Shown: one piece after another, positions 58,566 to 64,000 of the stretch
How positions within the stretch are numbered: position 1 is the first letter of the stretch
Layout: every line of letters starts with the position of its first letter
Assembly (NCBI GenBank): GCA_963746535.1
Contig: CAVVBP010000007.1
Location: 880,444 to 944,443, forward strand
Direction of reading: 5' to 3'
Source of the DNA: Vicinamibacterales bacterium
GTDB taxonomy: Bacteria > Acidobacteriota > Vicinamibacteria > Vicinamibacterales > JAMQPK01
Length of the DNA stretch: 64,000 nucleotides
The notes under the pieces: model-generated
The model's database searches: none
Seen by the model: the letters and a program-made list of their open reading frames with translations, nothing else
What the model was told of the DNA's origin: nothing
Translations under genes and position numbers: made by a program

Positions 58566-59054
58566 CTAGCTGGTCTTCGAGCCGCGGCGGCGCGGCGCGC
58601 GTCTGCTTTTTGCGCCGCGGTCGTGCGGTACCCACGCGCCCGGCCGTGCGATCATGACCTCGGTCGACTTGACGATGGCCAGCGCGTCGTCACCGCGCCG
58701 CAATTTCAGCGCCCGAACCGCGTCGGAGGTAATGACGGCCGTGAGCGACTGATCGCCCACGCGCAAGCGCACCTGGGCGAGCAGGCCGTCGATGCGGACT
58801 TCGTCGACGAACCCGTGCAGGCGATTGCGGGCGCTCAGACCGCCGATCGACTCGTCGGGTGTGGCGGGCCGGGCTCGCTTCGTGTCTTGCGGCTCCTGAC
58901 GAGCCATCAGCCGCTCGATTTCGGCCTCGGCCACCCGATGATGGCCGCCCTCGGTCCGCGTGGTCCTGACATGGCCGCTGTGCACCCAACGCTTGACGGT
59001 CGAGTAGGCCACCCCGAGACGTTCGGCCGCCGTTCTCACTGTGACGAGTGTCAT
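58566..59054 (-). CDS. Molybdate-responsive regulator-like protein: excisionase/MerR-type HTH plus TOBE (Mop) domain
   Basis: VTVRTAAERLGVAYSTVKRWV...RTEGGHHR; LSARNRLHG...TAVIT...AIVKSTEV; divergent from modA. Confidence 0.85.
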   Translation of the reverse strand: MTLVTVRTAAERLGVAYSTVKRWVHSGHVRTTRTEGGHHRVAEAEIERLMARQEPQDTKRARPATPDESIGGLSARNRLHGFVDEVRIDGLLAQVRLRVGDQSLTAVITSDAVRALKLRRGDDALAIVKSTEVMIARPGAWVPHDRGAKSRRAPRRRGSKTS

Positions 59055-59067
59055 CGGCTCCTCAGGC

Positions 59068-59091
59068 TTGAAAATCGATTCAAATCGTATC
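59068..59091. promoter_or_regulatory. Candidate operator between the TOBE regulator and modA
   Basis: TTGAAAATCGATTCAAATCGTATC; its reverse complement matches 61722-61745 at 20/24. Confidence 0.55.
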
Positions 59092-59122
59092 AGAATTGCG
59101 TCATATTGATCCAATCAAATCC

Positions 59123-59930
59123 ATGCGCGTGGGTCGGCGCGCGAAGGCCGTAGTGCCGACAGCCGGCTCGATCGGTCGACTCGTCCTGGCGCTGCTGATT
59201 GTTTTCCAGGTCACGCTGGCGGGGCAGCGTCCGCCCACCATCGCCGCGGCGGCGAATCTCAACTTCGCGCTCACCGAGATCGCGAATCAATTCGAACGTG
59301 CGCAGGGCACGCGCGTCGAGATGGTGTTCGGCGCTTCTGGCACGTTGACGCGTCAGATTCAGGACGGCGCGCCGTTCGAGATGTTCCTGGCCGCCGACGA
59401 GGAATTTCCGAATCAGCTTTCCGGGGCGGGGCTGACACGCGATGCCGGTGTGGTGTACGCGGTCGGCCGCCTGGCGATCTTCGCGCCCAAGGGCTCGCCG
59501 CTCGTCGTGGACGAGCGGCTCGAGGGCCTGTCTCGACTCGCGAAAGCCGGCGGAGTGACCCGGTTCGCGATCGCCAATCCCGACGTCGCGCCATACGGTC
59601 GTGCGGCCGAAGCGGTGCTCAGGAAGCGGGGCCTGTGGGATGTGCTGCGATCCGAAGCTCGTCCTCGGCGACAGCATCACGCAGGCCGCGCAGTTTGCGA
59701 CGACGGGAAACGCCGTCGGCGGGCTCGTGGCGTACTCGCTGGTGCTGAGTCCTGGTTTCGCCGAGCGCGGTTCGTACGCCGTCATTCCGGCCGTCGATCA
59801 TCCACCTCTCCGTCAGCGGATGGTCCTGCTCAAACGCGCCGGCGCTGTCGCCACCGCGTTCTACGCATTCGTCCAGGGAGACGCCGCGCGCGCCATCCTC
59901 AGGAAACACGGCTTCGCGGTGCCGGAATAG
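59123..59930 (+). CDS. modA: Molybdate ABC transporter substrate-binding protein; 1 frameshift near 59650
   Basis: AAAANL, FGASGTL, FEMFLAAD, IANPDVAPYGRAA, LVLGDSITQAAQF. Confidence 0.9.
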
Positions 59931-59936
59931 CCATCG

Positions 59937-60605
59937 ATGGACTGGACGGCTCTGCGGGTCTCGCTCGCGCTCGGGGCAGGCACGATCGCGATGCTGCTCC
60001 CGTTCGGGATCTGGCTCGGTCACCTGCTGGCCGTCCGCCAGTTTCGCGGCAAGCTCCTCGTCGAAGCGCTCGTGACCGTTCCGCTCGTCCTGCCGCCGAC
60101 CGTGCTCGGTTTCTATCTGCTCGTCACCTTCGGCGCGCGGTCGCCGCTCGGCCAGGCCTTCCAGGCCATCGTCGGGCAATCCCTTCCGTTTTCGTTCGAG
60201 GGGCTGTTGCTGGCGTCTGCCATCGCCAACATTCCGTTCGTCGTCCAGCCGATCCAGCGCGGCTTCGAGGCCATTCCGAATGACGTCCGCGACGCCGCCG
60301 CGTGCTGCGGGCTGACACCCTGGGAGCGCTTCCTCCGGATCGAAATCCCGCTCGCGTGGCCCAGCATCCTGACCGCGGCGATTCTCACCTTCGCGCACAC
60401 CCTCGGCGAGTTCGGCGTCGTGTTGATGGTCGGCGGCAATCTCCCGGGAGAAACGCGCACGCTCAGCGTGGCGATTTACGATCGCATGCAGGCCTTCGAC
60501 GATCGCAGCGCCGGCATCATGGCCGCGACGCTGCTCGTCGTGGCCGTCACGACGCTCATGGCGACGACGATGCTGTCGCGGCGGGTGGGGCAGCGCCGTG
60601 GCTGA
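59937..60605 (+). CDS. modB: Molybdate ABC transporter permease
   Basis: PLVLPPTVLGFYLL, LTFAHTLGEFGVVLMVGGNLPGETRT. Confidence 0.95.
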   Translation: MDWTALRVSLALGAGTIAMLLPFGIWLGHLLAVRQFRGKLLVEALVTVPLVLPPTVLGFYLLVTFGARSPLGQAFQAIVGQSLPFSFEGLLLASAIANIPFVVQPIQRGFEAIPNDVRDAAACCGLTPWERFLRIEIPLAWPSILTAAILTFAHTLGEFGVVLMVGGNLPGETRTLSVAIYDRMQAFDDRSAGIMAATLLVVAVTTLMATTMLSRRVGQRRG

Positions 60606-61703
60606 CCGGCGCTGTCACGATCAATCTTCGTCAGGAAAGCCCGATTCCGCTCGATGTGGACGTCGCGTGCGATCCGGGCGATGTGCTCGCCATTTTCGGA
60701 CCATCCGGGAGCGGCAAGACAACCATCCTTCGCACCATCGCGGGGCTCTATCGCCCGGCGCAGGCCGTGGTCCGATCGGGCAGCACCACATGGACCGACA
60801 CCGGCAGTGGCGTTTTCGTGCCGCCGCATCAACGGGCCGTTGGATTCGTCTTTCAGGAATACGCGCTGTTTCCTCATCTGACTGCGGCCGGCAACGTGAT
60901 GACGGCGCTTGGTCATCACCCACGTTCGGAACGGCGCCGTCGCGCCGAAGAGTTGCTGCAGCTGCGTGCACTTGTCCGATCGGATGACCCGACGTCCGGC
61001 GGAGCTGTCGGGAGGCGAGCGGCAGCGGGTGGCGCTCGCGAGAGCGCTGGCGCGCGAGCCTGCCGTCCTGCTGCTCGACGAACCGTTTGCCGCGGTCGAT
61101 CGCGTGGTACGCCGCGCCCTTCAGGATGAAATCGACGCGTTGCGGCGCACGCTCGACATGCCGCTCATCCTCGTCACGCACGATTTCGAAGACGTCGTCC
61201 GGCTGGCCACGCACGTGATGATGCTGGAGCGAGGAAAGAGCCTCGCGGTTGGGGCGGTGACGGATCTCATGAGTCGGCCCGATCTGACGTGGCTGCGAGC
61301 GGCGATCGGACTCGGCTCGGTGTTCAACGCCATCGTGGCGCACACCTATCCAGACCGCGGGCTCGCGGAGCTCACGTTCGAAGGCGGGAAACTACTTGTG
61401 GCGGACCAGACGGTCGCGCCGGGCACGGCCGTGCGCGTGCGCATCCCCGCCCGCGAAATCATCCTCGCGACGAGCCGGCCGGATGGGCTGAGCCTTCACA
61501 ACGTGCTGTCAGGCAGGGTCTCTGCCGTTCACACCAATCCATCGGAAAACCAGGTGGTCGTGCAGCTCGCGGTGGGCAGGGTGCTGCTGCTGGCCGAAGT
61601 GACCCGGGACGCCATCCAGCGGCTCAAGGTGGAGGTCGGGAGCGAGCTCTACGCGCTGGTCAAATCGGTGTCGGTCGAGCTGGTGACATCCGGGTCCGGC
61701 TGA
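60598..61703 (+). CDS. modC: Molybdate ABC transporter ATPase with TOBE domains; 1 frameshift near 60960
   Basis: GPSGSGKT, VGFVFQEYALFPHL, LSGGERQRVALARAL, LLLDEPF, LSLHNVLSG. Confidence 0.92.
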
Positions 61704-61716
61704 AGCCGGACACTAC
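61694..61716. repeat. GTAG-tagged REP-like palindrome overlapping the modC stop codon
   Basis: GTCCGGCTGAAGCCGGAC-ACTAC; modC TGA at 61701-61703 lies in the loop. Confidence 0.8.
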
Positions 61717-61721
61717 GTTTA

Positions 61722-61745
61722 GATATGATTTGAGTCGATTTGAAA
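61722..61745. promoter_or_regulatory. Second copy of the candidate operator, upstream of the TonB receptor
   Basis: GATATGATTTGAGTCGATTTGAAA with GATTTGA repeated at a 10-bp period. Confidence 0.55.
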
Positions 61746-61778
61746 TCACTAGTTGAGACGGTCTAGAGTTTACGATCT

Positions 61779-64000
61779 GTGCAGCCGGGTCGAAGGGGAT
61801 CGCTCTTAGTCTGCTTTGTCGTCGCGAGCGTCTGCGGCGTCGGCGTGTTGCCCGGATCTGCTCAGACGGCTGCCGGCGAGATCACCGGCATCGTGAAGGA
61901 TCAGGCCGGAGCGGCCGTTCCCGGCGCGACCATTACGGTCACTGAAACACGTACGAATCGTCAGCGACTGGCCGTGTCCACCGACGAGGGCGTCTACACG
62001 GCCCCGAGCCTGGCGCCTGGCGAATACCGCATCGATGTCGAGCTCGCCGGCTTCAAGTCCGTGCGCCGCGAGGGCATTCGCCTGTCAACCGGCGAGAGAG
62101 CGCGCATCGAGTTCGACCTCACTGTCGGAGACGTTCGAGAACTGGTGACGGTCGTCGCAGACGCGCCGATTGTGCGAGCGGAGACCGCGAGCCTCGGGAC
62201 CGTCGTCGAGAACGAGCAGGTCGTGCAGCTGCCGTTGAACGGCCGCCTGTTCATCATGCTCGCGGCCATTGCTCCGGGCGTCGCGCTGCCGCCGAATTCC
62301 GTCCTGCCGCGCATCAACGGCGGGAGACCGCGAACGAACGAGTATCTCTTCGACGGCATCTCCGTGCTGCAGCCCGAGCCGGGGCAGCTCGCGTACTATC
62401 CGATCATCGACGCCATCCAGGAGTTCAAGATCGAGAGCAACAGCCCGGCGGCCGAGTTCGGGCGGTTCAATGGCGGCGTCGTCAATCTCACGACGAAATC
62501 GGGCACGAATGCCTTTCACGGCAACGTGTTCGAGTTTTTCCGCAACGAGAATCTGAACGCCAGGAATTACTTCCAGTCGACCAATCCAGTGAAACCGGAC
62601 TATCGGCGGAATCAGTACGGCGGCATGTCCGGCGGCCCGATTGTGAAGGACCGGACGTTCTTCTTTGTCGATTATCAGGGGCAGCGGCAGAGCATCGGCC
62701 GCACGGTGACCTCGAACGTGCCCACGCTCGCCGAACGTTCAGGTGTCTTCCGCCAGAACATCTACGATCCGGCGACAACGGTCGGGAATACGCGTCAGCA
62801 GTTCCCGAACAACACGATTCCGAGAAGCGCCATGGATCCCGTCGCGCTGGCGCTTCTCGAGCGCTATCCGCTCCCGACCAACACCGCCACCGCGAACAAC
62901 TACAGCCGGACGGCCAACGAAATCGACAGTCAGGATCAGGGCGATGTCCGCATCGATCACAAGTTTGCTTCAGGCCGCGATCAGGCGTTCGGGCGGTTGA
63001 CGCACTTCCGTGGTCGTGCCGAACCGGTGACGGCCTTTCCGGACGGGAGCGGAACGATCCTGGCCGGCAGCGTGGCCGTGGGTCCGCAGGATACGACGGC
63101 ATGGGCGTTTGCTTCGAACTATCAACACACCTTCTCGACCAACGTGCTGAACGAAGTGCGCATCGGAGATACACGGCGATCCGTCCAGCGCGGCGCGGTG
63201 TCGTTGCCGTCGCCTGCTGGCGCCGCGCTCAACATTCCCGGCATTCCGTCGAATTCGCAATTTGCCAACACGATGCCGACCTTCGCACCGAACGGCTACC
63301 AGCAGCTCGGATCCCCGAATAACACGGCCTCCGACTTCAGCACGAGCGTCACACAGATCGCCGATTCGGTCACCTGGCTGAAAGGCCGCCACACCATGAA
63401 GATGGGGCTCGACTGGCGTTGGGAGCGGCTCAACGTGATCCAACCCCCCTGGCCGACGGGGTCGTTTGCCTTCAGCACCGTTGGCAGCGATCTCCCCGGG
63501 GTCGCGAATACCGGCAATGCATTCGCGAGCTTTCTGCTGGGACAGGTGCAGACCTTTGCCATCGACCTCCAGCAGACGGACATTCAGGAGCGCGCACACT
63601 TTCAGGAGTACTTCATCCAGGACGACTGGAAGGTATCCGAGCGCCTGACGCTCAATCTGGGGCTCCGATACACGCTGAATTTCCCATCCACGGAGATCAA
63701 CGGCCAGACGGCCGTGTTCAATCTGCAGACCAGGCAGCTCGACTATCCAGGTACGGAGCCGGTACGGCCGCTCAAGAAGGACAACTTTGGCCCGCGGATT
63801 GGCGCCGTCTACAGCCTGACCGAAAAGACCGTCGTCAGCTCGGGGTACGGGAAGGTCTGGATCGAGATGGCGGGGATCACGACGCCGTTCACGACGCCGA
63901 ACTTTCCGTTCCTGCAGGACGTGTCGTTGCGAACGCTCGACAACATTACACCGGCGTTCGTGCTGGCGAAGGGACCGACCGTCACACCAGTCGGCCCGAC
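61779..64000 (+). CDS. TonB-dependent receptor (Oar-like, N-terminal carboxypeptidase-regulatory-like domain), 3'-truncated
   Basis: My translation: signal peptide, ITGIVKDQAGAAVPGATITV, LPLNGR, DAIQEFKI, GRFNGGVVNLTTKSGTNAFHG, FIQDDWKV, DNFGPRIG; frame phase agrees at both ends; absent from the ORF track, consistent with no stop in the window. Confidence 0.9.
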   Translation, partial: MQPGRRGSLLVCFVVASVCGVGVLPGSAQTAAGEITGIVKDQAGAAVPGATITVTETRTNRQRLAVSTDEGVYTAPSLAPGEYRIDVELAGFKSVRREGIRLSTGERARIEFDLTVGDVRELVTVVADAPIVRAETASLGTVVENEQVVQLPLNGRLFIMLAAIAPGVALPPNSVLPRINGGRPRTNEYLFDGISVLQPEPGQLAYYPIIDAIQEFKIESNSPAAEFGRFNGGVVNLTTKSGTNAFHGNVFEFFRNENLNARNYFQSTNPVKPDYRRNQYGGMSGGPIVKDRTFFFVDYQGQRQSIGRTVTSNVPTLAERSGVFRQNIYDPATTVGNTRQQFPNNTIPRSAMDPVALALLERYPLPTNTATANNYSRTANEIDSQDQGDVRIDHKFASGRDQAFGRLTHFRGRAEPVTAFPDGSGTILAGSVAVGPQDTTAWAFASNYQHTFSTNVLNEVRIGDTRRSVQRGAVSLPSPAGAALNIPGIPSNSQFANTMPTFAPNGYQQLGSPNNTASDFSTSVTQIADSVTWLKGRHTMKMGLDWRWERLNVIQPPWPTGSFAFSTVGSDLPGVANTGNAFASFLLGQVQTFAIDLQQTDIQERAHFQEYFIQDDWKVSERLTLNLGLRYTLNFPSTEINGQTAVFNLQTRQLDYPGTEPVRPLKKDNFGPRIGAVYSLTEKTVVSSGYGKVWIEMAGITTPFTTPNFPFLQDVSLRTLDNITPAFVLAKGPTVTPVGP

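Follow-up and report, generated by a model that had tools for sequence, protein, structure and literature searches.

In Escherichia coli and other Proteobacteria, molybdate uptake is controlled by the ModE-modABC system, in which a cytoplasmic Mop/TOBE domain senses molybdate, the regulator gene is adjacent to and divergent from modABC, and the operator overlaps the modA promoter, with repression of uptake expected when Mo is sufficient. ModE proteins contain an N-terminal ModE-type wHTH and two tandem Mop domains (di-Mop), and their operator is the inverted repeat ATCGnTATATA-N6-TATATAnCGAT (PMC545781). A different solution is represented by the TunR/TaoR family of tungstate- and molybdate-responsive regulators of sulfate reducers, which use an HTH_17-type DNA-binding domain connected to a periplasmic-binding-protein-like sensor domain, sometimes with an added TOBE (PMC11980592), and seem to control Mo/W transport or tungstoenzyme genes. 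BldC of Streptomyces is the founding member of the BldC family of MerR-like wHTH regulators. It is a 68-residue protein without effector domain that controls development and binds AATTxxxx(C) direct repeats head-to-tail as cooperative multimers (PMC5859096), on targets in which an A/T tetrad, four bases and a C:G pair recur at a 9-10 bp period in a variable number of units. At the outer membrane, metal-regulated TonB-dependent transporters for non-iron metals (e.g., ZnuD for zinc, and nickel, copper and lanthanide receptors) place an energy-dependent uptake step under the cytoplasmic sensor of the same metal. For molybdate, the secreted-ModA/IcmP route of Pseudomonas aeruginosa shows that Mo can have a dedicated outer-membrane partner (PMC11734730), but IcmP is not a TonB-dependent transporter and no paper describing a TonB-dependent transporter assigned to molybdenum was found in the literature searched. 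How Gram-negative bacteria move Mo across the outer membrane is largely unknown. This metal limits nitrogen fixation, nitrate use and many redox enzymes in soils, where it is scarce and bound to organic matter and minerals.

A locus of a soil Acidobacteria genome

The locus analysed here lies in a 64,000-nucleotide stretch (the window) of a 6.1 Mb Vicinamibacterales genome (GCA_963746535.1, contig CAVVBP010000007.1) and contains a regulator gene, modABC and an Oar-type TonB-dependent receptor gene (Table 1). A preliminary description based on the sequence alone had noticed a shared 24-bp motif in front of modA and in front of the receptor, and had proposed that an HTH+TOBE protein sensing molybdate/tungstate co-regulates the receptor, which may import a Mo/W chelate or cofactor. 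The observation is correct, and each part of this hedged interpretation survived the comparative tests that could be run. However, the description missed that the motif is a direct-repeat array typical of BldC-type wHTH proteins, that it overlaps the -35 boxes, that the receptor operator extends to the -10 region, and that the receptor, rather than modABC, is the partner that marks this regulator clade.

Table 1. Coordinates of the features of the locus, in window numbering.
Coordinates	Strand	Feature	Basis and remarks
58566..59054	-	Regulator gene (162 aa): N-terminal BldC-like/excisionase-type wHTH (HTH_17), disordered linker, one Mop/TOBE domain	Pfam HTH_17 (PF12728) 6.6e-10 and TOBE 1.4e-14; ATG at 59054
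59068..59091	-	Operator copy 1; on the minus strand two 10-bp direct-repeat units (TACGATTTGA / ATCGATTTTC)	Ends 13 nt before the regulator ATG; the same element sits at the same place upstream of most regulator orthologs
59084..59092	-	Putative extended -10 (TGATACGAT) of the regulator's own promoter, inside operator copy 1	Inference only; GGTGATACGATTCG is conserved upstream of regulator orthologs, and in several loci the ATG follows it by 8-10 nt, which suggests leaderless transcripts
59068..59096	+	Sigma-70-like modA promoter (TTGAAA-17-CAGAAT)	Operator units fill its -35 box and spacer
59115..59121	+	Extra TCAAATC (reverse complement GATTTGA)	35 bp from the nearest unit, so out of the 10-bp phase; conserved only in the closest relatives (one locus, and partly a second)
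59123..59930	+	modA, molybdate ABC substrate-binding protein	Six-frame translation; frame breaks near 59640-59660; after joining the two frames, TIGR01256 modA equivalog 179 bits (cut-off 62.5) and SBP_bac_11 4.6e-57
59937..60605	+	modB, ABC permease	BPD_transp_1 4.6e-20
60602..61703	+	modC, ABC ATPase with a C-terminal TOBE domain	Frame breaks near 60950-60980 and start codon uncertain; on the joined translation, ABC_tran 8.8e-32 and TOBE 5.3e-10
61694..61711	+	Hairpin GTCCGGC-TGAA-GCCGGAC that holds the modC stop codon; may end the modABC transcript	Read from the sequence; similar hairpin visible in one other locus; not called by the consensus terminator scan
61722..61745	+	Operator copy 2, units TATGATTTGA / GTCGATTTGA	Its 3' end is the -35 box of the receptor promoter; ends 33 bp before the receptor's GTG; conserved in the same orientation and at the same distance upstream of receptor orthologs
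61740..61769	+	Sigma-70-like receptor promoter (TTGAAA-18-TAGAGT)	A fourth unit-like element, GAGACGGTCT (61755-61764), abuts the -10 box; the block CGATCTAgAGT is conserved at a fixed distance in 19 orthologous promoters
61779..64000	+	Oar-type TonB-dependent receptor (1103 aa), with signal peptide, CarboxypepD_reg domain and large beta-barrel	Runs on to contig position 65090 in window numbering; OMP_b-brl_4 2e-132, CarboxypepD_reg 1.8e-18, TonB_dep_Rec_b-barrel 7.8e-8 (33 bits, cut-off 27)

A unique and conserved direct-repeat array

The first copy of the motif, TTGAAAATCGATTCAAATCGTATC, lies in the 68-bp spacer between the regulator and modA start codons, and its reverse complement, GATACGATTTGAATCGATTTTCAA, differs from the second copy, GATATGATTTGAGTCGATTTGAAA, at 4 positions, giving a match of 20/24 in which GATTT recurs at a 10-bp period in both copies. 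The motif is a tandem array of 10-bp direct repeats with consensus GAGTCGATTT, that is, an A/T-rich tetrad, four bases and then a C:G pair. In the whole genome the two copies are each other's only match within 5 mismatches, while the expected number of matches of at least 20/24 at this base composition is 2e-5 per window and 2e-3 per genome. Matrices built only from regulator-upstream sites, or only from receptor-upstream sites, of other genomes rank copy 2 first and copy 1 second of 12.2 million positions, 7-10 bits above the next hits. The seven next-best hits that were checked all lie inside long ORFs and none is next to an obvious Mo gene, and they were thus rejected as further regulon members. 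The sites in other genomes were picked by iterative refinement seeded with the window's copies, and the matrices are therefore not fully independent, a limitation mitigated by the fixed position and orientation of the sites and by an unseeded 7-mer enrichment analysis, which recovered GATTTGA/CGATTTG/TTGAGTC upstream of receptors and TACGATT/TATGATT upstream of regulators. Moreover, the first five bases shared by the two copies (GATAY) may partly reflect the regulator's -10 box rather than operator sequence. A search of 41 relatives with a 15-mer and 2 mismatches was too noisy to define further regulon members, although 8 of 13 hits with at most 1 mismatch were receptor promoters.

Both copies contain the -35 box of the only two promoter-like sites found in 58950-61900, a region in which shuffled sequence gives a mean of 0.4 such sites. 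Because both boxes are TTGAAA and A/T-rich islands in a 64% G+C genome are usually promoters, the resemblance could be attributed to chance or to generic promoter/UP-element composition. This is extremely unlikely, since in addition to the low chance expectation no other promoter in the 6.1 Mb genome resembles the motif, it is absent from the promoters of 33 paralogous receptors, and conservation extends well beyond the hexamers.

A predicted BldC-like domain fused to a Mop domain

The regulator passes the Mop-domain model (TIGR00638, 63.8 bits, cut-off 55) and the excisionase model (TIGR01764, 43.1 bits, cut-off 28.8), whereas its score with the BldC model NF033787 (35 bits) is below the cut-off of 77. 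Sequence comparison with the PDB identified ModG (1h9j) and BldC (6amk, E 3e-6), and an AF2 model has pLDDT >90 in both domains. In Foldseek comparisons the modelled wHTH matches BldC with TM 0.85 and rmsd 1.3 A, and the modelled sensor domain matches MopII with TM 0.78 as well as tungbindin, ModG and ModE structures. The N-terminal domain is about 40% identical to BldC, the equivalents of BldC Arg30 and His46 (R22 and H38) are present, and the GGHHR of the wing is invariant, although K26 of BldC is a serine here. The units of the array (ATTTGAGTC, 2-4 per site) have the layout of BldC targets. In contrast to BldC, the wHTH is fused to a Mop sensor domain, which would make repeat binding ligand-dependent. 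This domain is a single TOBE/Mop stretch (residues 73-137) in which the oxyanion-site residues S74-A/G-R76-N77, T105, T109 and K129-S130-T131 are invariant in 81 orthologs and align to ModG and Mop. The protein thus looks like a molybdate/tungstate sensor.

With respect to ModE, the DNA-binding domain is unrelated, there is one Mop domain instead of two, the operator is a direct and not an inverted repeat, and the regulon appears to include a TonB-dependent receptor. No ModE-type wHTH (TIGR00637, ModE_repress) was found in the regulator or anywhere in the genome, while the same search gave matches in 9 of the 14 control genomes, E. coli among them, and only two TOBE domains exist in the genome, those of the regulator and ModC. 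With TunR/TaoR the protein shares the HTH_17 domain, but its sensor is a lone TOBE/Mop domain and no periplasmic-binding-protein-like domain was detected. The family of the regulator is large, with at least 7,870 homologs in the protein collection searched, and is annotated only as 'molybdopterin-binding protein'.

Since the genome encodes many regulators and binding is inferred, the motif could be the operator of a transcription factor encoded elsewhere, with the HTH-TOBE protein acting on other DNA or on no DNA. This is very unlikely, because the motif travels with the regulator gene, at a fixed distance upstream of it in most of 80 loci whatever the neighbouring genes are, because its direct-repeat layout is the one documented for the closest structural relative of the regulator, BldC, and because 16 of 18 relatives with a receptor ortholog also have the regulator.

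Linkage of the receptor to the regulator and modABC

The motif is conserved upstream of orthologs of the regulator and of the receptor across Vicinamibacterales, but not upstream of receptor paralogs. Among 41 relatives, every receptor ortholog of at least 62% identity has a site upstream in the correct orientation (two of them weak, about 15 and 19 bits), and no paralog (at most 39% identity) does. In a receptor-anchored sample of 46 orthologs, 24 have the regulator within 5 kb, 23 have mod genes within 5 kb and 26 have a site of at least 18 bits, whereas among 33 paralogs the counts are 0, 1 and 0, respectively, with a maximum site score of 7.9 bits. The sampled genomes are related, and these counts therefore overstate independent events. 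Several lone receptors keep the site, and in about 12 loci the receptor is directly divergent from the regulator with no modABC between them. Receptor linkage is confined to one regulator clade (clade A).

The wHTH belongs to the excisionase family model, the two copies are inverted and bracket modABC, and modABC is absent from between the regulator and the receptor in some relatives, which could also suggest recombination sites or remnants flanking a mobile modABC cassette and bound by an Xis-like recombination directionality factor. This possibility was considered and rejected as extremely unlikely. In the loci fetched, no integrase gene is conserved next to the unit and nothing but the regulator, modABC and the receptor recurs. 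Furthermore, the sites coincide with promoters and persist where no modABC lies between them and upstream of lone receptors, and the protein carries a ligand-sensing Mop domain with invariant binding residues.

A proposed molybdate-responsive regulon

In the model that best explains these data, to which a probability of roughly 0.7 is given, the two copies are operators most likely bound by the adjacent regulator, which replaces the canonical ModE that this genome lacks. Molybdate (or tungstate) is inferred to bind at interfaces between Mop domains and so to promote oligomerisation, the linked wHTH domains then sitting head-to-tail on the repeats as BldC does. At the regulator/modA spacer one array would cover elements of both divergent promoters, and at the receptor the -35 box and upstream DNA, with a further unit at the -10 box. 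The most likely outcome is repression of modABC, the regulator gene and the receptor when Mo is sufficient, and derepression under Mo scarcity. However, a site upstream of and overlapping a -35 box can also serve activation, and BldC both activates and represses, so the sign of regulation is open. In addition, in genomes where the regulator pairs with the receptor, modABC lies elsewhere, sometimes with its own paralogous regulator and often with no obvious copy of this motif, and the link to Mo therefore rests on the Mop domain and on frequent, not universal, mod adjacency. On this reading the receptor is the outer-membrane member of the Mo-acquisition regulon, and it probably takes up molybdate/tungstate or a Mo chelate with TonB energy and hands it to periplasmic ModA. 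The regulator would be a ligand-controlled member of the BldC family, offering a simple model for how an effector domain can gate head-to-tail filament binding on direct repeats.

It is also possible, although somewhat less likely than not, that this receptor ortholog group is a dedicated TonB-dependent importer for molybdenum, taken up as free molybdate/tungstate at very low concentration or as a Mo chelate, and that it is switched by a new class of metal sensor in which molybdate-driven assembly of Mop domains loads BldC-type wHTH domains onto direct repeats. As far as the literature searched shows, such an importer would be the first of its kind, and the linkage would provide a first substrate lead for the Oar-type receptors, a very large family with almost no known substrates and with about 100 first-look candidate segments matching in this genome. 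Alternatively, co-regulation by the Mop-domain regulator may be real without the receptor importing molybdenum. It might carry another cargo whose need depends on Mo status (e.g., tungstate only, vanadium, an iron chelate or sulfate-like anions) or, like Myxococcus Oar, work in export. No substrate can be read from the sequence, no metallophore-synthesis gene lies next to the receptor, and ModA-type binding proteins and Mop domains bind tungstate as well as molybdate. This alternative is nevertheless considered unlikely, because across three classes of Acidobacteriota 33 of 46 receptor orthologs lie within 5 kb of modABC or the regulator, against 1 of 33 paralogs, because the receptor immediately follows modABC in the window, and because uptake regulons of metal sensors would normally be expected to consist of transporters for the sensed metal.

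A Pfam search of residues 134-265 of the receptor did not detect a Plug domain even at E<=1. No conserved partner gene was found downstream of the receptor, and the 1104-aa gene that follows it in this genome is not conserved elsewhere. Finally, residue 22 of the regulator is R where position 5 of the site is C, and Q/H where it is T. This association is real (36 of 37) but follows the two regulator clades, and receptor sites in Q22 genomes still have CG. It was not used as evidence of protein-DNA covariation.

Genomic context of the locus

The window is part of contig C7 of a 6.1 Mb genome with 64% G+C content in 14 contigs, the closest relatives of which are metagenome-assembled Vicinamibacterales (Acidobacteriota), many of them from long-read soil assemblies. 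A protein with HTH_17 and TOBE domains is encoded on the minus strand next to modABC, which is followed by the gene of an Oar-type TonB-dependent receptor that runs beyond the window. The modA and modC genes each change reading frame once in this assembly. Close relatives have uninterrupted genes (modA in locus L001 and modC in locus L122), while other long-read relatives show similar breaks in other mod genes. These are probably assembly errors rather than pseudogenes. The hairpin that carries the modC stop codon in its loop, a similar version of which sits upstream of the receptor gene in locus L021 of a relative, may be a terminator or a REP-like element separating modABC from the receptor transcript.

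Features of the regulator-modABC-receptor region (window numbering)
Feature	Position	Strand	Description
Regulator gene	58566-59054	minus	162 aa, HTH_17 and TOBE domains
Motif copy 1	59068-59091		reverse complement matches copy 2 at 20 of 24 positions
Promoter-like site in front of modA	59068-59096		TTGAAA-17-CAGAAT
Conserved block just upstream of the modA start	59100-59116		GTCATATTGATCCAATC
modA	59123-59930
modA reading-frame break	59640-59660
modB	59937-60605
modC	about 60602-61703
modC reading-frame break	60950-60980
Hairpin	61694-61711		7-bp stem, GTCCGGC-TGAA-GCCGGAC
Probable extent of the receptor operator	about 61720 to 61769
Motif copy 2	61722-61745
Promoter-like site in front of the receptor	61740-61769		TTGAAA-18-TAGAGT
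Unit-like element before the -10 box	61755-61764		GAGACGGTCT
Oar-type TonB-dependent receptor	from 61779		1103 aa, runs beyond the window
ORF following the receptor	65171-68485		1104 aa, beyond the window end

Architecture of the repeat motif

The match between the two motif copies noted in the preliminary description, with GATTT at a 10-bp period, is confirmed. At this base composition 2e-5 such matches are expected per window and 2e-3 per genome, and a scan of the whole genome on both strands found no other sequence within 5 mismatches of either copy. The alternative raised in the preliminary description, that the motif is simply a common promoter element, therefore fails.

The motif is a tandem array of 10-bp direct repeats. 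In 19 aligned receptor promoters the consensus is tt-GAGTCGnATT-GAGTCGATTT-GAAt, which is followed after a fixed 17-18 nt by a conserved CGATCTAgAGT. The last unit supplies the -35 box (TTGAAA), whereas the conserved downstream block holds the -10 box (TAGAGT/TACAGT). The piece just before the -10 box in the window itself resembles a unit. The operator probably extends through the -10 region and is not restricted to the 24 bp. A consensus scan of positions 58950-61900 finds exactly two promoter-like sites (shuffled mean 0.4), one in front of modA and one in front of the receptor, and both -35 boxes lie inside the two motif copies. Read towards the regulator gene, copy 1 begins with TGATACGAT, which is conserved upstream of regulator orthologs as GGTGATACGATTCG and is in some loci followed by the ATG after only 8-10 nt. 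This element looks like an extended -10 box with leaderless or short-leader transcripts, and one array in the 68-bp spacer can therefore cover both divergent promoters. The block just upstream of the modA start, which is conserved in the nearest relatives (loci L001, L004, and L010-like loci), could be the real modA -10 region (CATATT) or a further binding element.

Conservation and specificity of the motif

In 80 loci fetched through the regulator, the motif lies at a fixed place and orientation upstream of most regulator orthologs and upstream of 20 or more of the 24 receptor orthologs present in those loci. Matrices built only from the regulator sites of other genomes, or only from the receptor sites of other genomes, rank the two copies of the window first and second among the 12.2 million positions of this genome, 7-10 bits above the rest, and the seven next-best hits checked are all inside long ORFs. 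Because the foreign sites were chosen by refinement seeded with the window's copies, an unseeded 7-mer enrichment was also performed, which returns the same words. Among 41 relatives, every receptor ortholog of at least 62% identity has a site upstream (two of them weak, of about 15 and 19 bits), while no paralog (39% identity or less) does, and 16 of 18 genomes with a receptor ortholog also have the regulator. A recurring 15-mer, ATTGTGTCGATTTGT/A, appears once or twice per genome in seven of the relatives (G001, G002, G005, G009, G010, G011 and G019), including in genomes that lack the regulator.

A second sample, anchored on the receptor and thus free of regulator ascertainment, gave the counts tabulated below, and several receptors with neither neighbor still keep the site.

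Neighborhood and upstream sites of receptor orthologs and paralogs in the receptor-anchored sample
Receptor class	Loci	Regulator within 5 kb	mod genes within 5 kb	Site of 18 bits or more
Orthologs	46	24	23	26
Paralogs	33	0	1	0 (best 7.9 bits)

In about a dozen loci the regulator and the receptor are directly divergent with no modABC between them. The 1104-aa ORF that follows the receptor in this genome is not found next to receptor orthologs in the regulator-anchored loci (L001-L080).

Predicted domains of the regulator

The first 53 residues of the regulator match BldC of Streptomyces (PDB 6amk, E 3e-6), and the modelled domain superposes on BldC with TM 0.85 and rmsd 1.3 A. The equivalents of the BldC DNA-contact residues Arg30 and His46 are R22 and H38, and the wing GGHHR is invariant in 81 orthologs. 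BldC binds direct repeats of the form AATTxxxx(C) head-to-tail as cooperative multimers on sites with variable numbers of repeats (PMC5859096), and the units found here (ATTTGAGTC, 10-bp period, 2-4 per site) have exactly that layout. In the C-terminal domain, residues 73-137 pass the Mop model (63.8 bits, cut-off 55) and match ModG, MopII, tungbindin and the ModE di-Mop domain in both sequence and (modelled) fold. The SxRN segment, T105, T109 and K-S-T, which align with the oxyanion-site residues described for ModE (PMC11672702), are invariant. The genome has no ModE N-domain and only two TOBE domains, that of this regulator and that of ModC. The family is large (at least 7,870 homologs) and is named only 'molybdopterin-binding protein'.

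Proposed model of molybdate-responsive regulation

In the proposed model, molybdate or tungstate binds at Mop-Mop interfaces. A single-Mop protein must pair to form such sites, which is established for Mop proteins and inferred here. The resulting oligomers would place wHTH domains head-to-tail on the repeats, which cover the promoter elements of modABC, the regulator gene and the receptor. Repression at Mo sufficiency is the most economical reading for an uptake regulon and fits the operator positions (i.e., spacer and -10 region at the divergent pair, and -35 through -10 at the receptor), although activation cannot be excluded. The receptor would then be the outer-membrane member of the Mo-acquisition set; no metallophore genes or other conserved partners lie beside it.

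Control of uptake by a metal sensor is a known kind of system. Previously described elements include ModE as the molybdate sensor (PMC11672702), ModE-type inverted-repeat operators (PMC545781), HTH_17-based TaoR-like regulators with PBP-like sensors (PMC11980592), and a secreted-ModA/IcmP route in Pseudomonas (PMC11734730). No TonB-dependent transporter assigned to Mo was found in the literature searched, which was incomplete and makes this absence of evidence only. The preliminary description had inferred that the Oar-like receptor is co-regulated and may import a Mo/W chelate or cofactor. This interpretation is supported, by comparative genomics alone, with binding, the Mo response and the receptor's substrate being inferred, and is extended here in that the motif is read as a direct-repeat operator of BldC type, the regulator has a new architecture, and the receptor is the partner that marks this regulator clade.

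Divergence of regulators and sites

A regulator tree splits into a clade linked to the receptor (32 of 55 loci) and a clade linked to modABC only (0 of 26 with the receptor). Some genomes have two paralogous HTH_17-TOBE regulators, as exemplified by relatives G020/G041 (C6:469520-472363 and C2:2047846-2049049; loci L003, L173), in which one regulator (84% identical to that of the window) is divergent from the receptor and one (60%) is divergent from modABC, which suggests subfunctionalisation. Receptor orthologs in Blastocatellia and Terriglobia (51-57% identity; loci L203, L204, L211, L212, L223 and L240) keep modABC or a distant (42-45% identical) HTH-TOBE regulator within 5 kb but lack the Vicinamibacterales motif. 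This fits co-evolution of regulator and operator, and a different operator sequence is expected there. Protein-DNA co-evolution may also be reflected, although the pattern follows the phylogeny and receptor sites do not show it, in the association between residue 22 of the regulator and position 5 of the site upstream of the regulator gene in 37 loci, where Arg (the equivalent of BldC Arg30) goes with GATACGATT (18/18) and Gln or His goes with (A/G)TATGATT (18/19).
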